From: Cytophagales bacterium
Lineage (GTDB): Bacteria > Bacteroidota > Bacteroidia > Cytophagales > Thermoflexibacteraceae
Reading direction: 5' to 3'
DNA: 64,000 nucleotides
Assembly: GCA_013299115.1 (NCBI GenBank)
Contig: JAAFKA010000014.1
Coordinates: 64,001 to 128,000 of the forward strand
The notes below the pieces were generated by a model. The model saw nothing but the letters and a program-made list of their open reading frames with translations. It ran no database searches and was not told where the DNA came from. This document shows positions 18,070 through 36,700 of the stretch, in pieces (the stretch's first letter is position 1; every line of letters starts with the position of its first letter). The translations under genes and the position numbers were made by a program.

Positions 18070-21000
18070 ATGAAAAAACATTGCTCAAAAATTACAAAAA
18101 TACTGCTCTTGCTGGCAATGCTGGCAATGACGCACACAAAGGGGTATGCACAGGCATTCATCACCCGATGGATAACCACCACAGGCACAATCACCATACC
18201 CACCACAGGCGGAGGTTATAACTATAACCTAAGTTGGACAAACCTTACCAATGCAGGCGTAGGTGATGGTAGCATAACTGCCCGAACAGGTAGCCACACC
18301 ATTATGAGTTTAGAAAACGGAAGCACCTACCAAATTGCAATAACGGGGGCTTTTCCGAAAATCTTTTTCAATTTTGGGTCAGAACGAAGTAAGATACGCA
18401 CTATTGAACAATGGGGAAGTATTGCTTGGACTTCTATGCAAAATGCTTTCAATGGTTGTGATAACCTGACCTATAATGCAGTAGATAACCCCGATTTGAG
18501 TGCTGTTACGGATATGTCGGGTATGTTTAGCAATACTTCAATTTTCAATGGCAATATCAATTCTTGGAATGTGAGTAATGTTACCAATATGGCGGGTATG
18601 TTTGGCGGGGCTTATGTTTTCAATCAACCTCTCAATAATTGGAACACAGGTAATGTAACAGATATGAGTGGTATGTTCATTAATTGTACTGCTTTTAATG
18701 GAAATATAAGCACTTGGGACGTAAGCAAAGTTACGAATATGACTTCTATGTTTGAAAAAGCAAGAAGTTTCAATCAAGATATTAGTGCTTGGAATGTTGG
18801 CAATGTTACCACTATGTTATCTATGTTTTGGCAAGCAGATGTATTTAATCAGCCTTTAAATAGTTGGAATGTTAGCAAAGTTACGACAATGAAACTAATG
18901 TTTTTCCTTGCACCAGCTTTTAATCAACCATTAAATAATTGGAGTACAAGTGCAGTTACTAATACAAGTGGTATGTTTAGTGGTGCATCTGCTTTCAATC
19001 AGCCATTAAATAATTGGAATGTAACCAATGTTACAGATATGAATGGTATGTTTAGTGGTGCCAATGCTTTTAATCAACCACTTAATAATTGGAATGTTGG
19101 CAACGTAACAGACATGAGTTTTATGTTTTCTAATGCAAGAAACTTTAATTCAGACATCACCACTTGGAATACAAGCAAAGTTACAAGTTTATTGAGTACA
19201 TTCTTTGGGGCAATAGAATTTAATCAAAACATTAATAATTGGGATACAAGCAATGTAACCACTATGGCTTCAACTTTTTGGAAAGCTGAAAAATTTAATC
19301 AGCCTCTCAATAATTGGAATACAAGCAAAGTTACAACTATGCATGGAATGTTTGCCTTTGCTACCATTTTTAATCAACCCTTAAATAATTGGAATGTTGC
19401 GAATGTAACAACCTTGCGGGAAATGTTTGTAAGTGCGGAAGCATTTAACCAAAATTTGAATAATTGGAATACGGTCAGTGTTACGAATATGGGTTCTACT
19501 TTCTGGAATGCAAAAAGTTTCAATGGTGATGTTACTACTTGGAATACAAGTAATGTTACCACTATGGGTTTTATGTTTTCAGGTGCTACGCCTTTTAATC
19601 AAGACTTAGTGAACTGGGACACAGGAAAAGTTACAGATATGACCAATTTGTTTGCAGGTACTGCTTTTAATTATAATATCAATAATTGGAATGTAAGTAA
19701 TGTAACAAGCATAGCTGCTATTTTTAATGGTGCAAAGTTCTTTAACCAACCACTTAATAATTGGAATACAAGCAATGTAACTGCAATGCGATGGGCATTT
19801 TGGGGTGCAACAGCCTTTAATCAGCCATTGAATAATTGGAATGTGAGTAAGGTAGCTAACATGGAAGCCGTATTTTATGATGCCTTAGCTTTTAACCAAT
19901 CTCTTGCAAGTTGGGATATGGGCAATGTAACAAATGCAGGATTTATGCTATTGAATAGTGGGCTTTCTGTGGCAAATTATGATGCAACACTTATTAGCTG
20001 GGCAGCACAAACCTTGCAACCAAATACAGGTTTAGGGTCGCAAGGGTTAAAATATTGTGCAGTAGCAGCACGAAATACTTTATTAGCTGCACCCAAAAAT
20101 TGGACTATTGCAGGTGATGCCCTAAGCCCTACTTGTGTACCTGTTTGTAACAATATCTACGTAAATGCAAGCACAGGCAACGATGCCAATGACGGACTTT
20201 CCAATGCCACTGCCAAACAAACTTTACAAGCAGCCTTTTCCACCGTAGCCGATGGCTGCACCGTAGTTCTCAATGCAGGAACTTACAACGAAAACGCAAC
20301 CCTCACAGGCAAATCTATTGCTTTGCTCGGCGTGGGCAACCCCACTGTTAGGCGAATAAACATGAACGGAGCAGGAAAAACCATGACCTTGACAGGGGCA
20401 GTGCAAATTTCGGAGTTGCTCAACTTGCAAGACGGCAATGTGGTGTCTAACGGAAATCTTACTTTGCTTTCCTCCGCAGCAGGGCAGGCATACATAGTCA
20501 ATAACTTGACTGCGGTAGTGATTGGAGATGTAAAAGTGCAGAGATTTGTGCCAAGTTATGCAGCAAGAACTACTACACAAGGCTACAATTATTTTTCTTC
20601 GCCTGTTTCGGGCAAAACCATTGCCGAGTTTAACGACAATGTACCTTTGGTACTCAATCCTAATTACGATTTTGTGAACACCTACGCAGGTGCTTTTCCA
20701 AATTTCTACCGATACAACGAAAACAGGGTAGTGAGTTCTCCCGCAGCCTCCAATGTTTTTGAAAAAGGTTGGGAGTCACCCGCCAGCACAGCCGAAAATA
20801 TGGAAGTAGGCAGAGGCTATATTCTCAACCTCAATTCAGGCTTAACACTTGATTTTATTGGCAACTTAAATAATGGCAATATAACCACCAATATTACACG
20901 TGGAAACGCAAGCAATTCGGGCTGGAATTTGGTAGGCAATCCCTATCCTTCGGCTCTTGATTTCAATGCTGTTTATACCCTCAATAGTCCGCAAATAGAT

Positions 21001-21942
21001 GGCTATAATTACCGCAGAATTGCCACAGGCTTGTATTCAGGCACGTGGGCATATTATGTGCAAGGCTTGCCCACAGGCACCAATGGCAGCACCAGTGATA
21101 TTGCCTTAGGGCAGGGTTTCTTTGTTCGCAAAAGTAATGTTGGCATTGCCAATTTGCAATTTAACAACACGATGCGGACTATTGCCAATCCGCAATTTTT
21201 TAGAACAGAAGACGCACAAAATACTGTTAATCAAGACATTAAAGGTTTATTGAAACTCAAAATATCGGCACAGGCAGGCAAAAAACAGGCAGATGAAACC
21301 CTTGTTTATTTCCACACGCAAGCAACCGAACACACCGATAAGGCATACGACGCACCCAAAGTGCAGTGGAATACAGGTGGTTCGCCAAATCTTTATACCC
21401 GAACCAAACAGCAAAATTTTGCTATCAATGCCTTGCCAAATCTGGAAAAAGAAACCACTATTCCGCTATGTTTTATTGTGGGCGAAAAGGGAACTTACAC
21501 CATAGAAACGATGGAAATGGGCAATTTTATTGGCTCGCCAAGCCTTGTGCTGGAAGACAAACAAACAGCTACTTTCCACCAAATTGCTACTAAACCTTAC
21601 ACCTTTGAAACTACTATAACAAATGATACCAGTCGTTTCGTCTTGCGTTTGGTGCCAGACTTTGCAGCCTTGCAGCAGCAGAAAAGGCAGACAAACGAAT
21701 TGGCTCTTTACCCAAATCCTACACAAGAGGTGCTGACTCTTGCCTTAGAAAATTCGGTAAACAGCGAGGTAACAGTCCGCATCACCGACCTCACAGGCAG
21801 GGAAGTGTTCAGCCAAAATGCAGCCAAAACAACGGACAAAGTGAGCCTAAAACTGAATGTAGCCAACCTTCCGCAGGGGTTGTATATTGTAGAAGTGGCA
21901 GGGGCGGAGTATGTGATGAGCAAAAGGTTTGTGAAGGAGTAA
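18070..21942 (+). CDS. Giant secreted protein with about 20 DUF285-type ~26-aa repeats and a T9SS C-terminal sorting domain
   Basis: 1290 aa with a signal peptide. The unit FNQPLNNWNVSNVTDMSGMF is repeated many times. The C-terminus (LYPNPTQEVLTLAL...GLYIVEV) matches the Por/T9SS CTD. Confidence 0.8.
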   Translation: MKKHCSKITKILLLLAMLAMTHTKGYAQAFITRWITTTGTITIPTTGGGYNYNLSWTNLTNAGVGDGSITARTGSHTIMSLENGSTYQIAITGAFPKIFFNFGSERSKIRTIEQWGSIAWTSMQNAFNGCDNLTYNAVDNPDLSAVTDMSGMFSNTSIFNGNINSWNVSNVTNMAGMFGGAYVFNQPLNNWNTGNVTDMSGMFINCTAFNGNISTWDVSKVTNMTSMFEKARSFNQDISAWNVGNVTTMLSMFWQADVFNQPLNSWNVSKVTTMKLMFFLAPAFNQPLNNWSTSAVTNTSGMFSGASAFNQPLNNWNVTNVTDMNGMFSGANAFNQPLNNWNVGNVTDMSFMFSNARNFNSDITTWNTSKVTSLLSTFFGAIEFNQNINNWDTSNVTTMASTFWKAEKFNQPLNNWNTSKVTTMHGMFAFATIFNQPLNNWNVANVTTLREMFVSAEAFNQNLNNWNTVSVTNMGSTFWNAKSFNGDVTTWNTSNVTTMGFMFSGATPFNQDLVNWDTGKVTDMTNLFAGTAFNYNINNWNVSNVTSIAAIFNGAKFFNQPLNNWNTSNVTAMRWAFWGATAFNQPLNNWNVSKVANMEAVFYDALAFNQSLASWDMGNVTNAGFMLLNSGLSVANYDATLISWAAQTLQPNTGLGSQGLKYCAVAARNTLLAAPKNWTIAGDALSPTCVPVCNNIYVNASTGNDANDGLSNATAKQTLQAAFSTVADGCTVVLNAGTYNENATLTGKSIALLGVGNPTVRRINMNGAGKTMTLTGAVQISELLNLQDGNVVSNGNLTLLSSAAGQAYIVNNLTAVVIGDVKVQRFVPSYAARTTTQGYNYFSSPVSGKTIAEFNDNVPLVLNPNYDFVNTYAGAFPNFYRYNENRVVSSPAASNVFEKGWESPASTAENMEVGRGYILNLNSGLTLDFIGNLNNGNITTNITRGNASNSGWNLVGNPYPSALDFNAVYTLNSPQIDGYNYRRIATGLYSGTWAYYVQGLPTGTNGSTSDIALGQGFFVRKSNVGIANLQFNNTMRTIANPQFFRTEDAQNTVNQDIKGLLKLKISAQAGKKQADETLVYFHTQATEHTDKAYDAPKVQWNTGGSPNLYTRTKQQNFAINALPNLEKETTIPLCFIVGEKGTYTIETMEMGNFIGSPSLVLEDKQTATFHQIATKPYTFETTITNDTSRFVLRLVPDFAALQQQKRQTNELALYPNPTQEVLTLALENSVNSEVTVRITDLTGREVFSQNAAKTTDKVSLKLNVANLPQGLYIVEVAGAEYVMSKRFVKE

Positions 21943-22107
21943 CTGTAGCTGCGGGCTTTAGCCCGCAGGATATTGTAGCATGGGCTTTAGCCTGTGCCAA
22001 AAAAATTGCAATGCTACCAATATAAAGTCCCTATCGGGACAAAAAAATATGGTGTGCTTTATTGCTACCAATATAAAGTCCCTATCGGGACAAAAAATGT
22101 AAAGTTC

Positions 22108-22450
22108 TTGTGCCGTTAGGCACTACATATTGGTAGAAAATAAGGAACACACCAAAATTATGTGCCGTTAGGCACTACATATTGGTAGAAAATAAGGAAT
22201 ACACCAAAATTATGTGCCGTTAGGCACTTCATATTGGTAGAAAATAAGGAATACACCAAAATTATGTGCCGTTAGGCACTTCATATTGGTAGAAAATAAG
22301 GAATACACCAAAATTATGTGCCGTTAGGCACTTCATATTGGTAGAAAATAAGGAACACACCAAGATAATGTGCCGTTAGGCACTGCATATTGGTAGAAAA
22401 TAAGGAATACACCAAAATTATGTGCCGTTAGGCACTACATATTGGTAGTA
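22108..22450. repeat. Tandem array of about 7 copies of a 52-bp unit (gtgccgttaggcactacatattggtagaaaataaggaaYacaccaaaattat)
   Basis: The period of 52 was measured from successive tgccgttagg occurrences at 22111, 22163, 22215, 22267, 22319, 22371 and 22423. Each unit contains the hairpin gtgcc-gtta-ggcac. Confidence 0.85.
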
Positions 22451-22571
22451 TTTTCGGTTTTAAGAAACCGAAATCACATAAAAAATTGCGGGCTAAAGTC
22501 CCGCAGCTACAGTAATTGAAAGCATTAAAAAACTGCGGGCTAAAGTCCCGCACTACAGAAAAGATAAAACT

Positions 22572-22760: not shown

Positions 22761-22767
22761 GTTTTTT

Positions 22768-22860
22768 TACGTTGGCAATGGTGCATTTTCGCACCTTGAC
22801 AATCGTAAAAAAAAATTTTCTACGATTGTCAAGGTGCGAAAATGCACCATTGCCAACGTA
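22768..22860. repeat. Family A element: perfect 40-bp inverted repeat with an A/T loop
   Basis: tacgttggcaatggtgcattttcgcaccttgacaatcgta ... tacgattgtcaaggtgcgaaaatgcaccattgccaacgta. Confidence 0.85.
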
Positions 22861-23181
22861 GAAAACGGAGCTACCAATATAAAGTCCCTATCGGGACAAA
22901 GTTAAAGTTGTAACATTTGTGCCTTTAGGCACTACATATTGGTAGAAAACGGAAACGTATCACGTGATTTTGTGCCGTAGGTCAATTCCATTGCGGACTA
23001 TCTATTGGTAGCACTTTCGGTTTTGAGAAACCGAAAGCACAAAAAAACTAAGTACAGAAGTAAACAAAAACCGTAGGCTAAAGCCTACGATACATTCTAA
23101 CGAAAAAATAAGTGCAAGAGTAAAAAACTGCGGACTGAAGTCCGCAGCTACAGTATTTTCACATTTAAACTATATACTAAA

Positions 23182-24798: not shown

Positions 24799-25228
24799 AA
24801 AAACAAAATTTCGGCAGTTTTTTGAACTATTGGCAGGGCTGAAAAAGCCATTGCCAAAGTTCAAAAAAGCCAATGCCGAGGTTGCAGTTTTGTAACCATC
24901 AGCAGTGGTAAAACTAACGTAGGGACGAAATAGTGCAAGCTATTTTGTTCCTACGTTAGTTTTACACCAGCCTACTTAGAGAGGTTTTGCTATAAATATT
25001 TCGTGCCTAAAGGCACTAAAAGATATGATTTATAGCTATAGTAAGTCTAATACTTATTTTGTAAAGCTATTTTTTTGCGTAAATCCTGACTCTATTATTG
25101 TTTAATCTTTAAACAAAAACAGAAAAAACACTTCAAAAATTGTTTAATAAAAAAATATTTTATAACTTGCCAAGTTGCTATTGCAAACAAGCTACCACAA
25201 ATATTTAACCCAACATTCGGCATTTTTT

Positions 25229-26602
25229 ATGGATATTACCCAAAAATTTTGGTCTTTTTGCCACAAATTAAGGCATGATGGCATTGATTCGTCTGATTAC
25301 ATAGAACAACTTACTTATTTGTTGTTTCTGAAAATGGCAGACGAAAAGCAGTTGCCTGTGCCTGCGGACTATAATTGGCAGCAACTTATCAAAAAAACGA
25401 ATGGGGAACTTATCACACAATTAGATGCAACCTTGCAGGTCTTGAAAAACGAAAAAGGGATTTTAGGGCAGATTTTTGCCGAGCCAGTTTCTCGTATCAA
25501 AAATGCGGTGTTGCTCAAAGATTTGTTGAAAGAAATAGATGCTATTCAGTGGACGAAATTAGATAGTGATGTGGTGGGGCTGGCGTTTGAGGAGTTGATA
25601 GGCAGAGTAGCCAATGAAGGCAAAAAAGGGGCAGGACAATATTTTACGCCTCGCCCACTGATTAAGGCTATGATAAATGTGATGCACCCCAACCCATTTG
25701 CAGCAAAGGACTACAAAATCGGTGACGCTGCATGTGGCACGGCGGGTTTTCTCACTCTTGCCTGTGAATGGATACACCAACACTACCCCAAAGAATCTGC
25801 CGAACAAGCCGAAAAATTAGCTTATCATACATTCTGGGGACAAGAAATAGTACAAAGACCAAGACGTTTGGCACTGATGAATATGTTTTTGCATGGCGTA
25901 GATGCCAGCGAAACCATTAAGTTTGGCGATACGATAGAAAACGACCAGCTACCAAATGACTTTGATTTGATTTTGGCTAATCCGCCTTTTGGCAACAAAG
26001 GAGCTGCCCCGCTGCACCGCAAGTTTCCTGTCAAAACAAGTGATAAACAGCTTAATTTTGTGCAGTTGATAATAGAAAAACTGAAAAAAGGGGGCAAGGC
26101 TGCGGTGGTGTTGCCCGATAGTTGTTTGACAGATGACAAAGCAAAAGAAATGTGGAAATATTATTTGGAACAAGAGGAGATTATCAACTTGCATACAATT
26201 TTGAAATTACCAAGAGGCACATTTGCTGCCTATGCAAATGGTATTAAGGCTTGTGTTTTATTTTTTGAAAAGGGAAGTAAGACCGAAAATGTATGGGTGT
26301 ATGATTATAGGACTAATGTTCCTAACATGACAAAAAAGACAAGACAACTTTCAATAGAAATGTTTGAGGAGTTTGAAAAATGTTTTGTAGAAAGAAAAGA
26401 AATAGAAAGATTTAAATTATTTTCATTTAGGCAAATTCAGGAAAATTACTTTGCTTTGGATTTTAGATGGTTACAAGATGATGTTTTGTTAGATTCAGAT
26501 GAATTGCAACCACCAAAAGACCTTATCAACTATGCTCTTGATAATTTGCAAGAAGCAATGACTAATTTGAGTGAAATTTTAGAATTATTGGACAAAAAAT
26601 GA
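25229..26602 (+). CDS. hsdM: Type I restriction-modification system methyltransferase subunit
   Basis: The conserved HsdM N-terminus starts at the internal Met (MDITQKFWSFCHKLRHDGIDSSDYIEQLTYLLFLK). The NPPFG N6-adenine MTase motif is present. The ORF track begins 54 nt earlier at 25175. Confidence 0.9.
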   Translation: MDITQKFWSFCHKLRHDGIDSSDYIEQLTYLLFLKMADEKQLPVPADYNWQQLIKKTNGELITQLDATLQVLKNEKGILGQIFAEPVSRIKNAVLLKDLLKEIDAIQWTKLDSDVVGLAFEELIGRVANEGKKGAGQYFTPRPLIKAMINVMHPNPFAAKDYKIGDAACGTAGFLTLACEWIHQHYPKESAEQAEKLAYHTFWGQEIVQRPRRLALMNMFLHGVDASETIKFGDTIENDQLPNDFDLILANPPFGNKGAAPLHRKFPVKTSDKQLNFVQLIIEKLKKGGKAAVVLPDSCLTDDKAKEMWKYYLEQEEIINLHTILKLPRGTFAAYANGIKACVLFFEKGSKTENVWVYDYRTNVPNMTKKTRQLSIEMFEEFEKCFVERKEIERFKLFSFRQIQENYFALDFRWLQDDVLLDSDELQPPKDLINYALDNLQEAMTNLSEILELLDKK

Positions 26603-28176
26603 AGATACCAAAACATTGGCAATATATTTCTTTTACAGAAATCCTTGATATAATAGGAGGTTCTCAACCTGCTAAAGAGGAATTTATTGCCAATTTTCAG
26701 GAAGGATATATAAGGCTTTTGCAAATTCGTGATTTTGGAGATAAGCCTGTTCCTACTTTTGTAAGATTGACGAATAAACTCAGGTTTTGCGATAAAGACG
26801 ATATTCTTATTGCTCGTTATGGTGTTTCTATTGGACGAATTTTAACAGGTATGTCAGGAACTTACAATGTCGCAATAGTAAAAGTTATTATTCCAAAACC
26901 TTTGAATAAAAAATTTATATTTTATTTTCTTAAATCAAATGATTTTCAACAATATATAACTGCAAATGAAAGGGCTGCAATCAATGGTTTTAATAAAGAA
27001 GACTTAAATAATTTTCAAATTCCTATTGCACCATTAATAGAACAAACAGAAATCGTATCTATTTTAGATGAAATCTTTGAGAAATTTGAAACAGCAAAAA
27101 AATCTTTGGCAAAAATTCCTCGCCTATTGGCTCGTTACCGCCAATCTGTTTTAGAAAAAGCTATTTCTGGCGAATTAACTGAGGATTGGAGAGAGGAGAA
27201 TAATGTGGAGTTTGAGTGGGAGAATAAAAAATTAGGAGCTATAACTTCATTAATTACAAGTGGTTCAAGAGATTGGGCAAAATTTTATTCAAATAAAGGT
27301 GCTTTATTTATTCGCATTGGGAATTTGCAAAAGAACTCTATAAAAATAGATTTATCTCCTAATAATTTAAAATTTGTAAATCCTGATAGTGAGGAAGGAA
27401 AAAGAACATTATTAAAGCAAAATGATATTTTAATATCAATAACAGGTGATTTGGGGATTATTGGATTAGTTCAGCAGGATATTGGGGAAGCATATATCAA
27501 TCAACATATAGCATTGGTAAGAGTTAAGCCTAATGATTTCAATACTACTTATATAGCCTATTATCTTTTGACTGATTATGTTAAAATCCAAATCAACAGT
27601 TTAAAATCTGGTAATGTAAAGGCAGGTTTAACACTTAAAGATGTTTTTAATATATCAATAAATCTTCCTTCTCTACCAGAACAAACCGAAATCGTCAATC
27701 GGGTAGAAAAATTATTGAAAAAAGCAGATGAAGCCGAAGCAAAATATAACCAAGCAATGCAGATGATTGATAAATTGCAGGCATCGGTTTTGGCAAAGGC
27801 TTTTAGTGGCGAACTTTCTGAACCGCAACCAAATGACGAGTCTGTTGCTGTACTTTTAGAAAAAATAAAAACCGAAAAGGCACGTTTGGAACAGGAAAGG
27901 AAGGAATTGCAAAAGGCACAAACTACTATCAAGAAAACTATGGCACAACAGGAAAAAGTAGTAAAATCTGTTTTAGATTTTCTACGTGAATCTCCAACTA
28001 AAAGTATGACAGTAGAGGAAGCTTGGCAAGTTTCCGAATACAGAAAAAACAAAGAGGTTGAACTGTTTTTAGATGTGTTGGTTCTTTTAGAAAAAGAAGG
28101 CAAAATTAAAAGAGAGTTTGCTGATGAGGCAACAAAAATTGTTACCAAAATAACCCTAATTGAAAATGCAAATTAA
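26599..28176 (+). CDS. hsdS: Type I RM specificity subunit (two target-recognition domains plus coiled-coil spacers)
   Basis: 525 aa. ATGA start/stop overlap with hsdM. Duplicated TRD architecture with conserved central and C-terminal helical repeats (LPEQTEIV x2). Confidence 0.85.
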   Translation: MKIPKHWQYISFTEILDIIGGSQPAKEEFIANFQEGYIRLLQIRDFGDKPVPTFVRLTNKLRFCDKDDILIARYGVSIGRILTGMSGTYNVAIVKVIIPKPLNKKFIFYFLKSNDFQQYITANERAAINGFNKEDLNNFQIPIAPLIEQTEIVSILDEIFEKFETAKKSLAKIPRLLARYRQSVLEKAISGELTEDWREENNVEFEWENKKLGAITSLITSGSRDWAKFYSNKGALFIRIGNLQKNSIKIDLSPNNLKFVNPDSEEGKRTLLKQNDILISITGDLGIIGLVQQDIGEAYINQHIALVRVKPNDFNTTYIAYYLLTDYVKIQINSLKSGNVKAGLTLKDVFNISINLPSLPEQTEIVNRVEKLLKKADEAEAKYNQAMQMIDKLQASVLAKAFSGELSEPQPNDESVAVLLEKIKTEKARLEQERKELQKAQTTIKKTMAQQEKVVKSVLDFLRESPTKSMTVEEAWQVSEYRKNKEVELFLDVLVLLEKEGKIKREFADEATKIVTKITLIENAN

Positions 28177-29806
28177 ATCGGTATCTATCAAAGAATTTCG
28201 CAATCTGAAAGATTTTAAGATTGATTTTTCTCAATCTAAAACAGTTTTGATTGGACAAAATGCGTCAGGAAAATCTAATTTCTTGGAGGCTATTGTATTG
28301 ATTTTCAAGCAGCTTGATTTTTTTGATAACGAAATTAAAAAAGAACATTGGTTTGAATATGAAATTATTTATAAAATCCGAGAACATACAATTAAAATTT
28401 CAAGAAAATTAGAAAATGGAAAAGAAAAAAATGAATATAAATTTTGCAAAAGTAAAGATTTATTAGGAAACGATGTTTGGAAAGACATCCCAAAGTTCAA
28501 TGAAAAAAAAGATGAATATTTACCTAAATATGTTTTTGCCTATTATTCAGGCTTAGGTAATGGCAACCGTTTGGAGGAATATTTTGAAGAATATCAACGA
28601 AAATTTGCCGAAGATGCTATGAAAATAAAAGATGGTCGTGTGCCAAAACCACCAAGACTATTTTATGCTGAGTTAATACATAGCCAACTTTCTTTATTTT
28701 CATTTTTCATTGATAATCAGCCACTTATATTAAAATTGTTGAAAGACAACTTAAGCATTGAAGATTTGCAAACTGTGTTTTTAACCATTCAAGAACCAAA
28801 CTGGTCAACTCTAGAAAAAAAGAAAAAAGACCCTAAATTTTTTGGTAGTCAAGGGGTTGTAAAAGATTTGCTTGAATACCTGCATGATAATGTAGCTTTT
28901 GCACCTTTTAGAGATAAAATAGAAAATAAAAGCAGGCTTTGGGAGAAAAAAGGAAAGAAAACCTTAGATGTTGTCTATTTATATTTTAATGATTTCGAAA
29001 AAATTAGAAAGTTTATTCGTGATAAAACATGGACTTCTTTTGATTTTTTCCACATCTTAAATACTGCAAATGTTTCTAAACTCATTACCAAAGAAGGTAT
29101 TAAAATTCGTGTCAAGAAAAAGTATGCAGACCGTATTCTGTTTAAAGACCTTAGCGAAGGAGAGCAGCAATTATTGACTGTTTTGGGTTTAATGCGTTTT
29201 ACTTATACAGAGGAGGCTTTATTTCTACTTGACGAACCCGACACACATCTCAATGCTCTTTGGCAGTGGCAATACATGAAGTTTATTGAAATTGTATTGC
29301 AAGATAAAGACAAGGACAAAGATAAATCAAATGTGCAAGTTATTTTGGCTTCACACTCTCCGCTGACTATGGGTAGTTTGGAGAAAGAAAATGTAAGAAG
29401 GTTTATGCAGTTAAATGATAAACTTATAGCTGTTGAGCCAGATGTAAGCCCAAGAGGAATGGGTATCATAGGTATTCTGACCGAAATATTTGGTATTCCT
29501 ACTACTTTGGATATACCAACTCAACAAGATTTAGATGCCCGTAGAGAGTTGGAAAGTAGAGTATATTTTGGCGAAACACTTAATCAAGAGGATGAACAAA
29601 GCTTGCTAAAATTAAATTTAAAACTTGATAATTTAGGCTATCGTCTGATTTATCCTGACCCCTTGTATCAAAAATTTGAAATGACTTTTGCCAAAAGGAA
29701 AAAAGAAAAAGGCTTAGGGCTACCAAGCACACCAGAGGAAGTAGCAGAACTTAATAAACTCGCAGAAGATTTACTAAAAGAATTGTTTGATAACGAAAAT
29801 ATTTAA
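28160..29806 (+). CDS. AAA_15/AAA_21 (ABC/SMC-like) ATPase, Septu PtuA-like
   Basis: 548 aa. N-terminal Walker A LIGQNASGKSNFLEAI. C-terminal Walker B/D-loop FLLDEPDTHLN and ASHSPL. Overlaps the hsdS stop by 17 nt. Confidence 0.6.
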   Translation: MKMQIKSVSIKEFRNLKDFKIDFSQSKTVLIGQNASGKSNFLEAIVLIFKQLDFFDNEIKKEHWFEYEIIYKIREHTIKISRKLENGKEKNEYKFCKSKDLLGNDVWKDIPKFNEKKDEYLPKYVFAYYSGLGNGNRLEEYFEEYQRKFAEDAMKIKDGRVPKPPRLFYAELIHSQLSLFSFFIDNQPLILKLLKDNLSIEDLQTVFLTIQEPNWSTLEKKKKDPKFFGSQGVVKDLLEYLHDNVAFAPFRDKIENKSRLWEKKGKKTLDVVYLYFNDFEKIRKFIRDKTWTSFDFFHILNTANVSKLITKEGIKIRVKKKYADRILFKDLSEGEQQLLTVLGLMRFTYTEEALFLLDEPDTHLNALWQWQYMKFIEIVLQDKDKDKDKSNVQVILASHSPLTMGSLEKENVRRFMQLNDKLIAVEPDVSPRGMGIIGILTEIFGIPTTLDIPTQQDLDARRELESRVYFGETLNQEDEQSLLKLNLKLDNLGYRLIYPDPLYQKFEMTFAKRKKEKGLGLPSTPEEVAELNKLAEDLLKELFDNENI

Positions 29807-30734
29807 GCCTTTTCTGTCCATGAGATACATTGATATTTCAAAACTCACACTTCCTGCTGGTTGGTTGGTAACTGCCAATACTGCCTTAGCTACTTTGCTT
29901 ACAAAGAGCAAAAGAGAAAGAAATGACTTTATAAATTCTAAACAGTCCACTACTTGGAAAGACAAAAAATTGGTTAGTGCTTTAACCGAATTAGTTAATC
30001 CTGCAATGGAAAAATGTTGGTATTCTGAAACCAAAATTAGTGATGATTTAGATATAGACCATTTTCGCCCCAAAGGACACAATGAAAGACTATCATTTAG
30101 AACTCAATTTGAGGAGCATTTAGAAAAAAGACATTTTGAGGAGATTGATACAGAGGTTAATATGGGTTGGTGGTTTTTGGCTTTTGAACCTACTAATTTT
30201 AGAGTAGCTTCGCCCCACAGGAATCAATTACGCAGAAATAATACAAATGAAAGAGCAAAAGGAAAGTCTGATTTTTTTCCTTTGAAAAAAGGTAGCCCCG
30301 TTGCCACTAATCACTATGGGGTAGCAGACGAAATAAATTGCCTTTTAGACCCTTGTAATCCTCATGATGTAGAACTTTTAATTTTTGATAGCAATGGGGA
30401 CATTTTTAAAAATCATACAGATACATGGATAGAATGTAGAATTAATATTTCTATTGTGGTCTATCATTTAGACGAAGCAAAATTGAAAAATGGTCGCCAA
30501 CAAGTTTGGACAAATACAGAAAAATATATCATACAGCCATTAGTTGAGTTAGTAAAAGATACTTCTTTTTCTAATGAAAAGAAGTTACAAGAGGTTAATA
30601 AATTGCAAAATCATTTTTATACTGATTTTGCAGATACAAAAAGGGAGTTTTCTGCTGTTGCCATAGACTGTCTTCGCCATCATCAAAAAAAACATCCTTG
30701 GTTGGATAGATTTCTCCCCAACTTGACAAAATAA
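29787..30734 (+). CDS. HNH nuclease of the TIGR02646 / PtuB-like type
   Basis: 315 aa. CWYSETKISDDLDIDHFRPKGH resembles the retron/Septu-associated HNH family. Overlaps the ATPase stop. An alternative start is at 29820. Confidence 0.55.
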   Translation: MITKIFKPFLSMRYIDISKLTLPAGWLVTANTALATLLTKSKRERNDFINSKQSTTWKDKKLVSALTELVNPAMEKCWYSETKISDDLDIDHFRPKGHNERLSFRTQFEEHLEKRHFEEIDTEVNMGWWFLAFEPTNFRVASPHRNQLRRNNTNERAKGKSDFFPLKKGSPVATNHYGVADEINCLLDPCNPHDVELLIFDSNGDIFKNHTDTWIECRINISIVVYHLDEAKLKNGRQQVWTNTEKYIIQPLVELVKDTSFSNEKKLQEVNKLQNHFYTDFADTKREFSAVAIDCLRHHQKKHPWLDRFLPNLTK

Positions 30735-30736
30735 AA

Positions 30737-30778
30737 ACCCTCCCCCACAAGTTCCACACCTGCAAAGAAGGGTTTTAT
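30737..30778. terminator. Bidirectional hairpin between convergent HNH and sprA genes (aaaccctcccccacaag...agggttt)
   Basis: Inverted repeat in the 56-bp convergent intergenic gap. Confidence 0.35.
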
Positions 30779-30790
30779 TTACTCACTTTG

Positions 30791-33700
30791 TTACTGCAAA
30801 TTAAATCTCAACTGAATCCCAAACGAAGTATTAGTCCGTCTGAAAGAATTGGAAACATAAGGGGCATTGATAGCGTGGTCGAAATAGAACTGCAAACTTG
30901 CCCGTTGGTTAATCACGTAGTTAATCGTCGGGCGAATTTGGAGGTTGTAGTTGCCTTGTGTTACCGTACTTTCTTGAATTTCCTCGCCGCTTGCCAACGT
31001 CTTAATGCTGCGTTGGGCAGTTTTGGTATCTCTGATGGTGAAGGCACAGGCAAAAGTCAAGTCGTTTTTCAGAGTTCGATAGTTGCCCCTAATTTTAAAC
31101 GGAATTTTGAAGTTTGATTTTACAAAACCAATATTCATCACAATTTCGTTGTTTCGCAATTCGGTAACTTGGGCATTCATCATGTTCATCGCAAGTCCAC
31201 GATTCATATTATACCGCACATCTATCGAGATATTTTTGGCTGTTTTTATCCGCACACCCACCAAAGGTGCAAAACCTTCGGTGATTGTAACTTGATTCAT
31301 CACAAAAACAGGAGTCAAACGGTTGGTATTGGCATCGAGTTTGGCGAGGGGCAAGTTCTGCAAATCTATGTTTAGTCGCAACAGCGAGGGGTCTGTAAAC
31401 GCCAACGAAGATTGGTAGCCTCCTGTGCTGTACTCCGAAGTATAGGCGTGTTCTATCTGAATAGAACGGAAATAAGGTTTCAAAAACGGCAAATTCGACA
31501 AGCCGTTGTAGGTCAATTTCCAGTTTGGCAACGGAATGGCGGGAAAAGCCGACAAACTTTGGTTGCTCACACTGCTGCCACTATACGCCGCCAAAAACGA
31601 AGGAATTAACACGTCTTGGGCATTTCTGTCGTAAGTGCCTTCGGTGTTTCGACTGTCCAAACTCTGTTTTACTGTTTGGCGGTTGCGAATAAACTCATCG
31701 AACAAGGGCGAATTGTTGGCTGCATTATCTCCTGTAAACATGGTGGCTAACGAAAAATAGGTAATAGCATATTGCCCACTTCGCTGCGGTGTTTGCGTTA
31801 CAAAAGCATCGGCAGTTCGGTTATAGGTAAACAATTCTTGGTAAGTTGCCATGTTGGTTCTTCGGGCATTGACCATGAGTTGCATATCTTTCACAGGCTC
31901 AATCACAGCTTCTATCCGCAAAGTTTGGTTAGTTCCTTGCCCAAACGTATTATTTTGCAAGGCACTTTTGCCCAACCATTCTCTTTTGGCTGCGGTTTCT
32001 TTTATGGTAGGGTCTTGGCTACCAAACACAAAGCCCCAACCAGGGGAGTTGAAAGCTGAACTCATACCAAAAGCCCCCGTAGGTGTGGTTAGCACCCCTG
32101 GCAAGGCTGTATTGTTGGTTTCGGTGTAAGAGAAGTTAATTTTTTGCACCATCATCATGCCTTTGAGCAAAGTACGCATAGGGCTGCTCACTGGTTTGGT
32201 AGAGTTTTGGTCAAGTCTTTCTTTGTCTGCCACTTCTGCCAATTTCTTTTCAATTTTCTCTAATCTTTTGTCAAATTTTTCGTTTTTCTTTGCAAATTTT
32301 TCACGCACTTTTTCAGACAACAGGCTGCTGTCGGCTTGGGCTTCTGCTTTCAGGCTGTCCATTTTGGCTGCCAATCTGTCTTTGCGTCCTTCTATTCGTT
32401 TTTTGCGAGCCTCCAAACGCAATTTTTTTCCTGCATATTTCGATGGCAAAGGTTCTTTTGCCTTGCGAGGGTCGGCAACAGCTGCCAAGACTCTACTTTT
32501 TTCGTAGAGTTTTTTCATGTCGAGTTGTCCGTTGATAGCCACGTTTTGGTTGTTCAGCATATTGTTGCCCAAACTATCTGCCAAACCTACTGCACCTGCC
32601 TGCCAAGTGTAACCTGCGGTGTATTTCACATCAGAGGCAACCCAATTTACAACAGGAAACTTGTCAAATGGCAATTTGTAGGTTACGCTGGTGGTCTGCA
32701 CAAAGTTTTTGATACGACCCAAATTGAGCAAATTGTTTAATACCGAGTCTCTTTTGGTTCTGTTGCTAAAACGGTTGGCTTGTGTGCCGTCTATTTCTCC
32801 TGCGGGTTCGTCTATAATTGCCTGTGCCTGTGCCGTATAGTCTAAACGCAAACTTTTGGTAATAGACCAAGCTAATTGGTAACTTCTATTAAAAGTAAAG
32901 GCTTTTTCGTACAGGGGCAATACGCCCAAGGTGCTTAATTGCCCATCTCTCAGTTGAGTTTTCACAAATCTCCTTTCAAAATCTCCGCGTACTGTTACAG
33001 TATTTGGCAAAGGTGCAAAGTTAAAATCTTTGATAAATTTCAAATATTTGCCTTCCAAATTTTGGTTTTTCTTAAAGGGTTCTATCGCAGGCACTTGACT
33101 ATTAAATTGGTATTGCAAACCCAGTCGGGTGTTTTCTTGCTTGTATTCGGCTGTCCGCACATTGCTACTTACCCTTTCCATATAAGCAAAATTCAATGCC
33201 CAATTTTCCACACTCCAAGGCTTAGGTTTCTTTTGCCCTACTGCATTTTTGCCCACATTCTGGAAGGCAATAGTACGCATATTCATATCTTCCCGCACCA
33301 AATCGAGGTATTCTTGCCTGTTGTCTTTTGCATCGAGGGCTTGCGTGAGGGGCATATCGGGGTCAAGGGGATTGAAGTACGGAGTCAAGAGTCGTCTTTC
33401 CATGCCCAAATACATAGGAAGTCGCCAGCCCCATTTGTTGAGTCCAAATTTTTCTAATTGGATTTGCATATTGAGGTCATATTCTAAGGTGTGGTTTCGA
33501 GTTCTTTGCGAAATTTTGTCTTGAATACCTCCAAAAAATGGCGAAACATAGCGGAAACTTGCGTTTATCCTTGCCAAATCTGCCAACTGCACCTGCAAAC
33601 TTGTACGGCTTGCCCAGCCTGCTTCGGTGTTAAATTCGGCTACACGCAATTCGTTTGCCCAGATACAAACAGATTTTGGTTGCAAGTCTGCTGATTCGGG

Positions 33701-36700
33701 GTTTCTCACGCCAATCATTGCCGTTTGCACACTACTCAAATCGGGATTGCCAATGACTGTAATTTTAAATCTGCCTACAATCTCCGAATAAGGCACACGA
33801 ACAGAAAGGCGTTGGTTGTTTCTCCTCGATTTTACATCTATTAAATCTGCCGTTGCCACGTCTATTTCGTTTTCTTGAGGCCACACCACGTTCACGTCTG
33901 TACTGCCAAAAGGTGTCATTTTCAAAGGTACTTCTATTTCATAGTAGTTTTCTTTAAAGTCTGTTCCCAAACGCAAAAATGCAACCATTTCGCCATCTTT
34001 GGCATCTCTACTTTCTGCGTGCAAAAACATTTTGACCCTTTTGTAATTGACCATATCTAAAATCAAATTTTTATAGACTGCCTTTGCATCTTTTTCGGGC
34101 AAGGCATCTACGCACATACGCAAAGACTGTTCATTCAACCTTGCTTGGGTGGCTGCACCTACCAAATTCAAATCACGAGTAAAACCCGGCGGCAACATAT
34201 AAGGTGTAATAGTTCCATCGGCTTTTGGTGTGCCGTTATTGACAATATTGATAGAAGAAACACGCAAATTATTGGTTGTGGCAGGTTCAGGAGGCAAGTT
34301 TAGCCCTGGTGTTTGCAAACTTTCGGTAAAAGGTCGCCAAGGTGTGCCTACAAATTGGAAACGAGCCATACGCAAGACTACGGGCTGTTGCCAATCTGTC
34401 ATATACATACGGATATAACGTATGGATTTGAAACCATCAATAGCACCAACTTTATTCGTAAAATCACGCACAGGAATACGGAACTGATACCATGTAACTC
34501 TGTCGGGATTGGTAGCCGTAGGGTCTGTTACCACCTTGTCCACCACATAAGGGCTGTTTTCTACTTGATTGGGGCGAAGGTCTATTTTGTATTCGTAATA
34601 GCCGTCGAGGTCATTCAAGGAATTATCACGATTAAGGTCTTCGTTGTCGGGCAAAGTAGAGTAAGAGGCAGTCCCTGCATTTTCAGGCGAATTGTTTTCC
34701 ATACCATTAAAAAATTTATAACGGTCGAGGATTTTATAGTCTAATTGGTCTGCTTTGTTGCCCAAATAATAGCTGAAATTGTCGTTAGAAGGGTCATTTT
34801 GTATCTCACGATAGACATCAGGCGTAACTCTGCCTTGCACTGCTTGCAAATAATCTGTAAATTTTTGTCTTTCTACTTCGTCATTGATACCGTCCATGCC
34901 CACGTCTTGCAATGCCCTGGTGCCTGTGCCACCCGAAAAAGCATTGGTTAAAAACTGCTGTTCGGTTACTCTGCCCCATGCCGTTTCTTTTATCCTGTCT
35001 AAATTGTTGGCTTCGGTAGGCAAACCATTTTCGAAACCATGACGACTATCAGGAATTACATCTTCCGATACATTGCCCAAGTTAAAATACAATTCGCCAC
35101 CTGTCGTGTTGTTTTCGGCTTGCACCTGTCCGTTTACCAATTTGGAAATTACCCTACCATTTGTACCTCTAATAAAAGGGTCGAGCAACCAAAATTCTAC
35201 GTATTGAATGTTGATGTTATCAAAATCTACATCAGAAGTAATGCCTTTGGTAATAGCCCCAAAATTGCTGCGAGGATTTGGCAACGTACCATCAGGATTG
35301 AGCAAAGGATTGTAATTGTATTGCCCTCTTTCGTTAGGGTAGTAGGCAATGTTCATTACCTGTTCGGGCAGGTTTATCTGCATGGCATCAGGTTTTACAA
35401 TTTCGTTGAACGGAATTAACCGAACATAGTGGTTTTCTTTGTCCTCTGGCGTAATATTGGGCGGCGGACTTCCACCTGAAACAGTCTGGAAAAAAGAAGT
35501 AAAATCTATGGTGTACCAAGAAGTTTTGGCACGTCTGTAACCATATTCCAAAGGTCTGTTCGGATTAAAGATGGGTCTGAATTGGTTGGGCGTAGAGCCT
35601 AAAATCCACGTGGTGGGTTGCCTTCCTAAGTCATAAGGAATTTCGGCAGCCTCGAAATCGTCTATGAACGAAGTACCGCCATCTTTGCCTATGAGTTGGT
35701 TGGTGCTGGGCAGCAAGGCAGCCACCTCCGAAGAAAAGGTATAACTCGACTTTTCTTTGGTGCTGTATAAGGGCAATTTGTCCACCAAACGAGTGAGCAA
35801 ACGAGCATCATCTTTGCGGTGCTGCACCCCCAAACCGACCAAACTATTGCGTGTAGGCTCACTACCAATGTTCACCCTTGTTATCAAAGGTCTTTCGTTG
35901 AGGTGCATAGCCGTTGCGGTAAATCTTGTATTTTTCGACAAGAAATATTGGGCATCTAAACCAAAGAAATTGCGAGTTTGGAAACTAAACAAGTCGGCTC
36001 TTTCGTATTGTATCCTTATTTCTTTGCCCGAAGCCAACAACTCAGGTCTTAGGATATTGACAACTCCCGATTGGTAATCTGCACTAAAATCTGTACCTTC
36101 TCTCAACAACGTGCCACCTGCCGTTATCTGAATAGAACGAGGGGCAATGTTAATTCCTGGTAGGCGAATAGACGTGCCACTGGTGGAGGCTTGGAAACTT
36201 CCTTTGATAAAAAATTTGCTTTTACTTGTCAAAAGTTGTGCGTCCATTTGCGTTTTGCGATACAACTCATTGAACACATATTTTTGGCGAAATTGCAATT
36301 CTTCTTCGGGCAAAAACTTTTCGTCTAAGGTACGCCCAAAAGGTTCGAGAACAGGGAAAATGATACGCCCAAATTCGGGATATATGGTTACGGGTGCAGC
36401 CACGCCTGATGTACCCGCCAAGTTGCTTTGGTTAGCCGCCGCACCTGTGTTGCCTACCTGCGTAGTGGGGAAAGGATTGGTATTTGCCCCGCCTGTGGTG
36501 CTGGGTATGTTGTTGAAACTCGAAGGCGTAAAACTATTGGCTACACTTTGCGAACTTACCCCTGCAATAAAGTCAAAATTGCCATCGGGCTGCGGGTCGT
36601 TGTTTTGGTTGAGCCTGTCCACACCAAAAACTTGCACCAACGGCACATTTTTGAGGTTTCTGCCCTCTTGCAAGTTCGGATTGTCTATGCCTGTGAGGTC

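Follow-up and report, generated by a model that had tools for sequence, protein, structure and literature searches.

Septu anti-phage systems pair an ABC-type ATPase, PtuA, with an HNH nuclease, PtuB, and in this study we examined one such pair that is encoded directly behind the methyltransferase and specificity genes of a type I restriction-modification locus in a Cytophagales bacterium. The DNA analysed is a stretch of 64,000 nucleotides (nt) of GenBank assembly GCA_013299115.1 (contig JAAFKA010000014.1, positions 64,001 to 128,000 of the forward strand), referred to below as the window, and all coordinates count from its first letter. Positions 25175-30734 of the + strand are taken up by four co-oriented genes, hsdM-hsdS-ptuA-ptuB. 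The first, hsdM (25175..26602), encodes a type I N6-adenine DNA methyltransferase with a probable start at ATG 25229 (457 amino acids, aa), and is followed by hsdS (26599..28176), which encodes a type I specificity subunit of 525 aa with two target-recognition domains, by ptuA (28166..29806), encoding an ABC/SMC-type ATPase of 546 aa, and by ptuB (29820..30734), encoding an HNH nuclease of 304 aa. Two parts of these proteins are of particular relevance to what follows: an extra C-terminal tail of HsdS (27904..28173, approximately aa 436-525), which extends beyond canonical HsdS models, and the C-terminal domain of PtuA (29513..29803, approximately aa 450-546), the presumed docking site of PtuB. 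The first two genes overlap by 4 nt (ATGA), hsdS and ptuA overlap by 11 nt, and a gap of 13 nt separates ptuA from ptuB. The GC content of the block is 33.5%, against approximately 40-42% in its flanks, and it was therefore probably acquired horizontally. Comparison with related loci, presented below, points to a PtuAB lineage that is seemingly hard-wired to a type I methyltransferase, and in which this link was kept after the restriction subunit had been lost.

The Septu pair

An open reading frame (ORF) for the ATPase lies at 28160-29806 of the + strand, as the preliminary description had claimed, and because the N-terminal sequence MxIxxV is conserved in our PtuA family alignment (A2), its true start is almost certainly the ATG at 28166. 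The PADLOC model of PtuA (PDLC00293) matches the protein over residues 1-544 of 546 (E 6.7e-145, 482 bits), and the affinity to AAA_15 and AAA_21 ATPases that had been proposed is borne out by profile search, since both Pfam families match (1.1e-21 and 2.6e-21, respectively), with SMC_N matching as well. Walker A (GQNASGKSN, aa 30-38, nt 28253-28279) and Walker B (LLDEPDTHLN, aa 354-363, nt 29225-29254) are both present as described. The sequence ASHSPL, which had been read as the ABC signature, is likewise present (aa 395-400, nt 29348-29365), but it belongs to the H-loop region, with an invariant H397, and the true signature is LSEGEQQ at aa 329-335 (nt 29150-29170). Walker A, signature and Walker B are all invariant in the family alignment. 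Weaker PADLOC matches were obtained to AriA (85 bits, 2e-24), GajA (64 bits, 3e-18) and mad3 (1.8e-16), and the solved PtuA chains are distant sequence matches only (phmmer, 4e-8 at best). Among the curated NCBIfam models, TIGR04435 matches only the C-terminal half of the protein (aa 316-464) with 124.6 bits, below its cut-off of 300, and the retron-type PtuA model NF041760 reaches 63 bits against a cut-off of 500.

The HNH gene had been described as a 315-aa ORF that overlaps ptuA and may carry an additional C-terminal domain. While the extent of the ORF (29787-30734, + strand) was confirmed, the N-terminal sequence MRYID is conserved in the PtuB family alignment (A1), so that translation almost certainly begins at ATG 29820 and yields 304 aa. 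The overlap exists only for the mechanical ORF with its TTG start; because the true starts of both genes are ATGs, ptuA and ptuB do not overlap. The predicted protein matches the PADLOC PtuB model (PDLC00343) over residues 1-300 of 304 and model positions 1-281 of 283 (E 1.2e-59, 200 bits). Its HNH motif is present as DIDHFRPKG (aa 78-86, nt 30051-30077), although TIGR02646, the family to which it had been assigned, is matched only weakly (18 bits; cut-off, 52), and a Pfam scan of the protein found no domain. A KCWYSE sequence lies at aa 65-70, residues H81, N126 and N135 are invariant in the family, and the H-N-N active site is intact. Conserved blocks (KCWYSE, DxDHFRPK, GYWxLAF, NYR, GKxxFFPL, LLDPC, YHL, EFSAVAIDC) continue to the C-terminus.

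With regard to length, PtuB of the window does exceed the solved PtuB chains (215-266 aa) by 40-90 aa, but it is of ordinary size within its own subfamily (262-320 aa). A total of 748 homologues were found at E <= 0.001, and the best-scoring ones among the matches listed are, with few exceptions, 262-328 aa in length and can be aligned over most of it. As a single-sequence query it matched none of the solved PtuB chains. The family profile, however, matches solved PtuBs in two places, its HNH part (positions 39-85) aligning with chain residues ~18-67 and its C-terminal helical part (positions 168-242) with residues 106-179, and both halves of the protein are thus canonical. Most of the surplus, approximately 45 residues, is inserted into the HNH core (roughly aa 87-160) and is accompanied by short N- and C-terminal additions. 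The protein was modelled by AlphaFold2 with a pLDDT of 90.5 and a pTM of 0.88, the HNH-core insertion being the least confident part, and in a Foldseek search of this whole-protein model against the PDB all significant matches were PtuB chains (retron Ec78/Eco7 and the E. coli Septu complex 8EEA), the top ones being 9vh1_F, 9nnb_J and 8eea_G (probability 1.0, target TM-score 0.56-0.60). No added domain was detected in this search, and the proposed extra C-terminal domain was not upheld, since the model, the PtuB profile and the family all span the full length, the C-terminal helices match those of canonical PtuB, and the surplus consists of insertions.

Since the best PADLOC matches of the two proteins are PtuA and PtuB and the predicted fold of the nuclease matches only PtuB chains, we have little doubt that 28166-30734 encodes a real Septu-type PtuA/PtuB pair, as first proposed. 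The two genes are adjacent and on the same strand, in keeping with the operon arrangement by which Septu is called. We considered whether an ATPase-nuclease pair of another kind (Gabija, PARIS, OLD or RloA/RloB) had been misread as Septu. The weaker matches to AriA, GajA and mad3 could be read in that way, and are what would be expected of related ABC ATPases, but the best of the alternatives remains at 85 bits (AriA; GajA, 64 bits) against 482 bits over the full length for PtuA, and the partner is an HNH protein with a PtuB fold and not a Toprim nuclease, which makes such a misreading highly improbable and led us to reject Gabija, PARIS and OLD as identities. As a single Septu instance the pair is ordinary in itself, and current tools would label it Septu beside an incomplete type I system.

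Methyltransferase and specificity genes of type I, without hsdR in the window

HsdM of the window matches Pfam N6_Mtase (2.9e-59), HsdM_N (2.3e-11) and the PADLOC MTase_I model (2.6e-138), and its catalytic motifs are intact (motif I, AACGTAGF; motif IV, NPPF). HsdS matches Pfam Methylase_S in two stretches (3.3e-30) and PADLOC Specificity_I (1.3e-82) over aa 2-432 only. No gene for the restriction subunit HsdR was found in the 64-kb window, neither by tblastn with 23 HsdR proteins of related loci nor by Pfam scans of the other ORFs larger than 460 aa, which revealed no ResIII or helicase protein. The preliminary description of Septu genes embedded in a restriction-modification locus thus holds only in part: hsdM and hsdS are present, but hsdR is absent from the window, and in relatives ptuAB is no chance insert but belongs invariably, and with translational coupling, to an hsdS-ptuA-ptuB unit.

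Linkage to hsdS and patchy occurrence of hsdR in related loci

The comparative set comprised 80 genome loci carrying relatives of the window PtuA (33-56% identity), together with a Hymenobacter locus that encodes the closest named PtuB; approximately 20 kb was inspected per related locus, and 64 kb in the source genome. These loci, numbered with an L below, are distributed across Bacteroidota, Pseudomonadota, Chloroflexota, Actinomycetota, Bacillota, Acidobacteriota and Planctomycetota, and include Methanosarcina. In essentially all 80, ptuA directly follows hsdS, and hsdM stands either upstream (M-S-A-B) or after ptuB (S-A-B-M). The junctions from hsdS to ptuA and from ptuA to ptuB are typically 4-nt overlaps. 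Members of the lineage that lack hsdM and hsdS are limited to one decaying locus (L033) and to loci truncated by contig ends. A single locus separates hsdS from ptuA, with a 424-aa ORF carrying an HNH-like CxxCNxxK motif between the two (L055, 7401-8675). In a Leptospiraceae metagenome-assembled genome, hsdM and hsdS read as one 1000-aa ORF directly upstream of ptuA (L006, 7009-10011), a genuine fusion of M and S or else a frameshift introduced by the assembly. Clustering of all neighbours of the related loci yielded no further conserved partner gene, and flanking genes were never shared between loci.

The occurrence of hsdR, on the other hand, is patchy. Flanks of at least 3.5 kb on both sides were available for 55 loci; 16 of these carry hsdR, always directly upstream of the cassette, and 39 do not. 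Where present, HsdR belongs to the EcoEI/EcoAI family, with ResIII, Helicase_C and EcoEI_R_C domains. The nearest relatives of the window (L005 and L007-L009) all lack hsdR and are flanked by housekeeping or conjugative-element genes. On the PtuA tree, loci that carry hsdR are interleaved with loci that do not, and one locus that otherwise lacks the gene, with gyrB flanking it, retains a remnant of 55 aa of the HsdR C-terminus directly upstream of hsdS (L062, 8002-8157), which is the footprint of an hsdR deletion. From the interleaving and this remnant, we conclude that hsdR has been lost repeatedly. A relaxed profile search for HsdR among large ORFs near hsdR-less cassettes revealed no hidden helicase, and these ORFs, which were considered as candidates for a missing component, proved unrelated (PFOR, PPDK, MacB, H+-PPase, GyrB, a TonB receptor, ArdC, TraG and a peptidase). 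The NPP[FYW] motif of HsdM was intact in each of the 70 loci checked, 49 without and 21 with hsdR.

Several of the hsdR-less cassettes reside on mobile DNA. One lies on plasmid pEuc2 of Pantoea eucalypti and another on a Roseomonas plasmid, whose gene table lacks ptuB but leaves an unannotated gap in its expected place. Five more (L005, L013, L015, L024 and L045) are located inside conjugative or integrative elements with TraG/VirD4-type coupling proteins, the anti-restriction protein ArdC, Fic or integrase, which means that mobile elements carry the cassette in Bacteroidota. An M-S-A-B cassette was also identified in E. coli MB06233 (L088; NZ_CM129883.1, 3,569,302-3,575,001), with PtuA 34% and PtuB 32% identical to the window's; it is part of an integrase/RadC/Fic island next to ygbA-hyp and has no adjacent hsdR. 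The chromosome of this strain is rearranged relative to K-12.

The C-terminal tail of HsdS and its co-divergence with PtuA

The extra tail of HsdS comprises approximately 85 aa, in which a Lys/Glu-rich linker leads to an unclassified domain of about 60 aa with a conserved block of roughly (I/L)L..L.....(L/I)....(L/V)W..S.....ID.FY..LK. It is present in all 80 HsdS ORFs that lie directly upstream of a ptuA, and the only HsdS without it, as judged by a hidden Markov model of the tail, is that of L055. Pfam searches with nine of the tails gave only non-significant hints of a winged helix, which the 60-aa domain possibly is, and single-sequence structure prediction was poor (pLDDT 44-79 over the tail) and was not used. 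No matches were returned by a word-indexed homology search with a 95-aa tail or by tblastn of a consensus-like tail against plasmids. An exhaustive phmmer search of 1.8 billion representatives gave nine matches, a result too insensitive to map the occurrence of the tail; eight of the nine are the C-termini of proteins of 332-550 aa, most of them about 500-550 aa long.

Co-divergence was assessed by Mantel tests on pairwise divergence across 70 loci, and within the M-S-A-B and S-A-B-M orders separately. PtuA and the HsdS tail were correlated with a rho of 0.61 over all loci (0.80 in M-S-A-B, 0.66 in S-A-B-M), compared with 0.58 for PtuA and PtuB (0.60 and 0.50), 0.20 for PtuA and HsdM (0.55 and 0.52) and 0.61 for HsdM and the body of HsdS (0.64 and 0.33). 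The tail thus co-diverges with PtuA more tightly than PtuB does (0.61 versus 0.58 over all loci), and these correlations indicate that it travels with PtuA. Such behavior is what would be expected of an adaptor, although plain linkage would look the same.

Exchange of modules between near-identical cassettes

Closely related cassettes differ from one another in two places. In four pairs of cassettes without hsdR (L069/L071, L047/L071, L059/L078 and L026/L054), PtuA and HsdM are 85-97% identical while the HsdS bodies share only 27-30% identity; for L069 and L071, the values are 96% for PtuA, 96% for PtuB, 97% for HsdM and 85% for the tail, against 27% for the HsdS body. The target-recognition domains of these hsdR-less cassettes have been exchanged recently. 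At the other end of the cassette, the C-terminal 80-100 aa of PtuA have been replaced together with the entire PtuB in the pairs L059/L071, L035/L058, L040/L046 and L015/L080, with 16-32% identity over the replaced parts. In L059 and L071, for example, PtuA is approximately 95% identical over aa 1-430 and at most 16% identical thereafter, and the PtuBs are 25% identical. This joint replacement indicates recombinational swapping of the effector end. PtuB binds the C-terminal domain of PtuA in the solved Septu and retron-Eco7 complexes (PMC12640716), and the exchange of this domain and PtuB as a unit fits that known binding. It also points to an arms race at the effector end.

Comparison with known systems

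The canonical type I Septu (E. coli complex PDB 8EEA; Doron 2018, Li 2024) shares with the window the two-gene arrangement of ABC ATPase and HNH nuclease and the PtuB fold. It stands alone, however, whereas the lineage of the window is joined with a type I methylase in an hsdS-ptuA-ptuB transcription and translation unit, its PtuA and PtuB are distant in sequence from the canonical ones, and its PtuB carries the ~45-aa insertion in the HNH core. In solved Septu, PtuA forms a hexamer that holds two PtuB molecules via the PtuA C-terminal domains, and ATP inhibits the nuclease (PMC12640716). The activities described for PtuAB are diverse, ranging from nicking of DNA by standalone Septu to cleavage of single-stranded DNA in retron Eco4 and depletion of tRNA-Tyr in retron Eco7 (PMC12640716).

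Retrons of type I-A, or Septu type II (Eco7/Ec78 and Eco4/Ec83), resemble the window in that PtuAB is encoded right after a separate sensing module, and their PtuBs are the solved structures closest to that of the window, but the upstream partner is a reverse transcriptase with its multicopy single-stranded DNA (RT-msDNA) there and HsdM/HsdS here. In Eco7, the RT-msDNA complex keeps PtuAB inactive until a phage nuclease destroys the complex (PMC12640716). We rejected a retron identity for the window on the basis of its upstream genes (hsdM and hsdS), the lack of any Rfam match and the NF041760 score of 63 bits against 500; in addition, neither the cassette nor the neighbour genes scanned encode a reverse transcriptase.

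PrrC of the EcoprrI locus, a type IC hsd locus, is similarly an ABC-ATPase-based nuclease encoded directly after hsdS; it occurs almost exclusively within type I loci, whose enzyme keeps it silent. PrrC unites the ATPase and an anticodon-nuclease domain in one polypeptide, whereas the nuclease here is a separate HNH protein, and PrrC belongs with another type I family, HsdR in the present lineage being EcoEI/EcoAI-like where present and frequently absent. The likeness is one of genomic position only, and with an end-to-end match to PtuA and a separate PtuB, an identity as PrrC was rejected. Classical type IB restriction-modification systems (EcoAI/EcoEI) are matched by the typical HsdM and HsdS of the window and by the same domain set in HsdR of its relatives. 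What sets the lineage apart from them is the absence of hsdR from the window and approximately 70% of related loci, the extra tail of HsdS, and the presence of ptuAB after hsdS.

The MADS system of P. aeruginosa combines a type-I-like methyltransferase, an S subunit, an ABC ATPase and a nuclease without HsdR, as the window does, and it tells self from non-self by methylation of a bipartite site. Its S-subunit gene (mad5) is not deletable unless the methylase or ATPase gene is deleted too. PADLOC matches were obtained between HsdM and mad2 (3e-54), HsdS and mad5 (2e-48) and PtuA and mad3 (1.8e-16), while the corresponding NCBIfam scores for MAD2, MAD3 and MAD5 (92, 39 and 63 bits) fall below their cut-offs of 720, 420 and 400. 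MADS consists of eight genes, its nuclease Mad4 is a Toprim/DUF4276 protein and not an HNH protein, and the detection model of its authors makes mad6, mad7 and mad8 mandatory. All three are absent from this four-gene operon, and we rejected membership in MADS. TIGR04435, a curated family of ATPases of restriction loci named 'restriction system-associated AAA family ATPase', shares the C-terminal half with the window PtuA, which at 124.6 bits against a cut-off of 300 is a relative of this family and not a member.

Genomic surroundings

The operon is flanked by a gene for a PKD lipoprotein and by sprA, and the same locus is present in four metagenomic contigs. A GC-rich, terminator-like hairpin with a 19-pair stem (30734..30776) separates ptuB from the convergent sprA (30791-38452, minus strand) and is likely a bidirectional terminator closing the operon. 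Further upstream, a gene unrelated to the operon (18070-21942, + strand) encodes a protein of 1290 aa that combines six DUF285 repeats with a C-terminal sorting domain for type IX secretion. Together with SprA and the PKD lipoprotein, this sorting domain points to a host from the Bacteroidota. The DUF285 gene is followed at 22057-22524 by a tandem array in which a 52-nt unit with the palindrome TGTGCCGTTAGGCACT is repeated approximately 8-9 times, with related copies at 22012-22097, 22869-22949 and 24986-25022, one of them just upstream of hsdM. The array is not a clustered regularly interspaced short palindromic repeat (CRISPR) locus, as conservation extends over the entire unit and spacers are lacking; it looks like intergenic repeats of the repetitive extragenic palindromic (REP) or miniature inverted-repeat transposable element (MITE) type. 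No Rfam family matched anywhere in the window, the array included. A near-perfect inverted repeat of 50 nt (96% complementary, 3-nt loop) lies at 22763-22865, in gene-poor DNA between the DUF285 and PKD genes. At the far end of the window, 58087-63054 (+ strand) encodes a protein of 1655 aa in which three TIR domains precede long WD40 beta-propellers; it may serve in defence or signalling as an NLR-like or TIR-based protein.

Discussion

The arrangement described here, in which the ptuAB lineage stands directly behind hsdS and usually has no hsdR nearby, suggests that the four genes form one unit. On these comparisons, a functional coupling of HsdM/HsdS to PtuAB is probable, and we lean towards a further proposal, that hsdM-hsdS-ptuA-ptuB would be a defence system complete in its four genes, in effect a Septu coupled to a type I methylase and in no need of HsdR. 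The methylase complex would contribute either sequence and methylation discrimination of foreign DNA, or bait for anti-restriction proteins. Discrimination, meaning that coupling takes the form of methylation-gated restriction rather than guarding, is slightly favoured because the specificity domains keep swapping in the absence of hsdR and the methylase is catalytically intact, yet we advance it as quite possible and not as probable. Precedents by analogy exist for both parts of such a design, PtuAB being a portable effector that is recruited by other sensors, e.g. that of retron Eco7, and MADS discriminating self by methylation with an M/S pair, an ABC ATPase and no HsdR.

Taken as a whole, our preferred reading, which remains tentative, is that of a Septu effector joined to HsdM/HsdS, independent of HsdR and restriction-like in action. 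An HsdM2-HsdS methyltransferase would read a bipartite DNA target and methylate the host genome. The extra C-terminal tail of HsdS, as the proposed adaptor, would tether a PtuA oligomer, and the C-terminal domain of PtuA would in turn hold PtuB, in the manner of the solved Septu complexes. On meeting unmethylated targets on incoming DNA, the methylase complex would license the ATP-gated PtuAB nuclease in a MADS-like manner. Where HsdR is present, it would serve as an additional arm that can be lost, and the system would diversify by two swapped modules, the target-recognition domains of HsdS and the C-terminal domain of PtuA together with PtuB.

A number of considerations weigh against this restriction-like reading. 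All of its support is comparative, and all 80 loci may descend from one ancient insertion. Our inspection covered individual loci, so that hsdR could be encoded elsewhere in these genomes, and loci without hsdR may be just as frequent among type I systems that have no ptuAB. Standalone Septu works without a methylase, which makes independence of the two pairs a legitimate default, and mad6-8, core genes of the MADS system on which the mechanism is patterned, are absent here. With regard to the tail, its co-divergence with PtuA may merely reflect adjacency on the DNA, with recombination breakpoints falling in the target-recognition domains; it may also occur in type IB HsdS proteins without ptuAB; and it has no significant Pfam match and a poor single-sequence structure prediction.

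Coupling could also take the form of a guard, comparable to PrrC, in which HsdM2-HsdS binds PtuAB and keeps it silent, until phage anti-restriction proteins directed at the methylase core, such as Ocr and ArdA, which mimic DNA, or Stp-like peptides, set it free or switch it on. The freed PtuAB would then destroy DNA or tRNA and abort the infection, and the methylase of hsdR-less loci would survive as bait. PrrC itself offers a parallel, being likewise an ABC-ATPase-linked nuclease after hsdS that is nearly confined to type I loci and silenced by the type I enzyme, and so does the PtuAB of retron Eco7, a toxin that is held by a sensor complex, freed upon damage to it, and depletes tRNA-Tyr. The position of hsdS before ptuA and ptuB, with translational coupling, is an antitoxin-toxin order, and loci of the R-M-S-A-B type would make sense as a first line of defence with a backup. 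A mere bait, however, has no obvious use for the complete exchange of target-recognition domains seen in hsdR-less cassettes, and a tail on a long charged linker would seem better suited to tethering than to conformational signalling. We consider a guard unlikely on balance, and assign about the same standing to the proposal that a self-sufficient Septu once landed in a type I operon and was inherited with it. HsdM/HsdS would then belong to a normal type I enzyme or be a methylase in its own right, incomplete or orphan. It has already been described that Septu can be embedded in larger systems and that genes are frequently embedded in type I loci, and defence systems often sit in type I, BREX and Hma loci and work alone there (Payne et al. 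preprint). Standalone Septu, moreover, requires PtuAB alone (PMC12640716), and adjacency as well as co-divergence could be explained by shared descent and linkage. Independent neighbours would nevertheless be hard to reconcile with a linkage of hsd genes to ptuAB that is universal across PtuA identities of 33-56%, across phyla and in two gene orders, while hsdR was repeatedly lost and the flanks differ from locus to locus; neither do hsdM and hsdS decay after the loss of hsdR, and every linked HsdS carries the extra tail.

The last of the alternatives retains a classical, complete type I system, with hsdR elsewhere in the genome and Septu as an embedded passenger. In type I systems hsdR often has its own promoter, and the inspected DNA, 64 kb of the source genome and approximately 20 kb per related locus, leaves room for a distant gene. 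We nonetheless regard this as distinctly unlikely, as hsdR, when present in the lineage, is always immediately upstream of the cassette and is absent from 39 of 55 loci with adequate flanks, and cassettes on plasmids and mobile islands would have to meet, in every host they enter, an hsdR that is compatible and of the same family.

In a limited search of the open-access literature, we found no description of an hsdMS-ptuAB unit or of a lineage with obligate hsdS-ptuA-ptuB linkage, nor was the HsdS tail or the frequent absence of hsdR described. The lineage-wide hsdS-ptuA-ptuB architecture is plausibly a new variant. If the four genes are a self-contained system, they would represent a third way of arming PtuAB, after standalone Septu and retron-Septu, and, with MADS as the first, the second family of type-I-like restriction that does without HsdR. 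If the coupling is real, the lineage would offer a simple four-gene system in which to study the trigger of Septu, with a native copy available in E. coli (L088), would explain many 'orphan' pairs of type I M and S genes in genomes and mobile elements, and would show how a generic ATPase-nuclease effector plugs into a DNA-methylation sensor.

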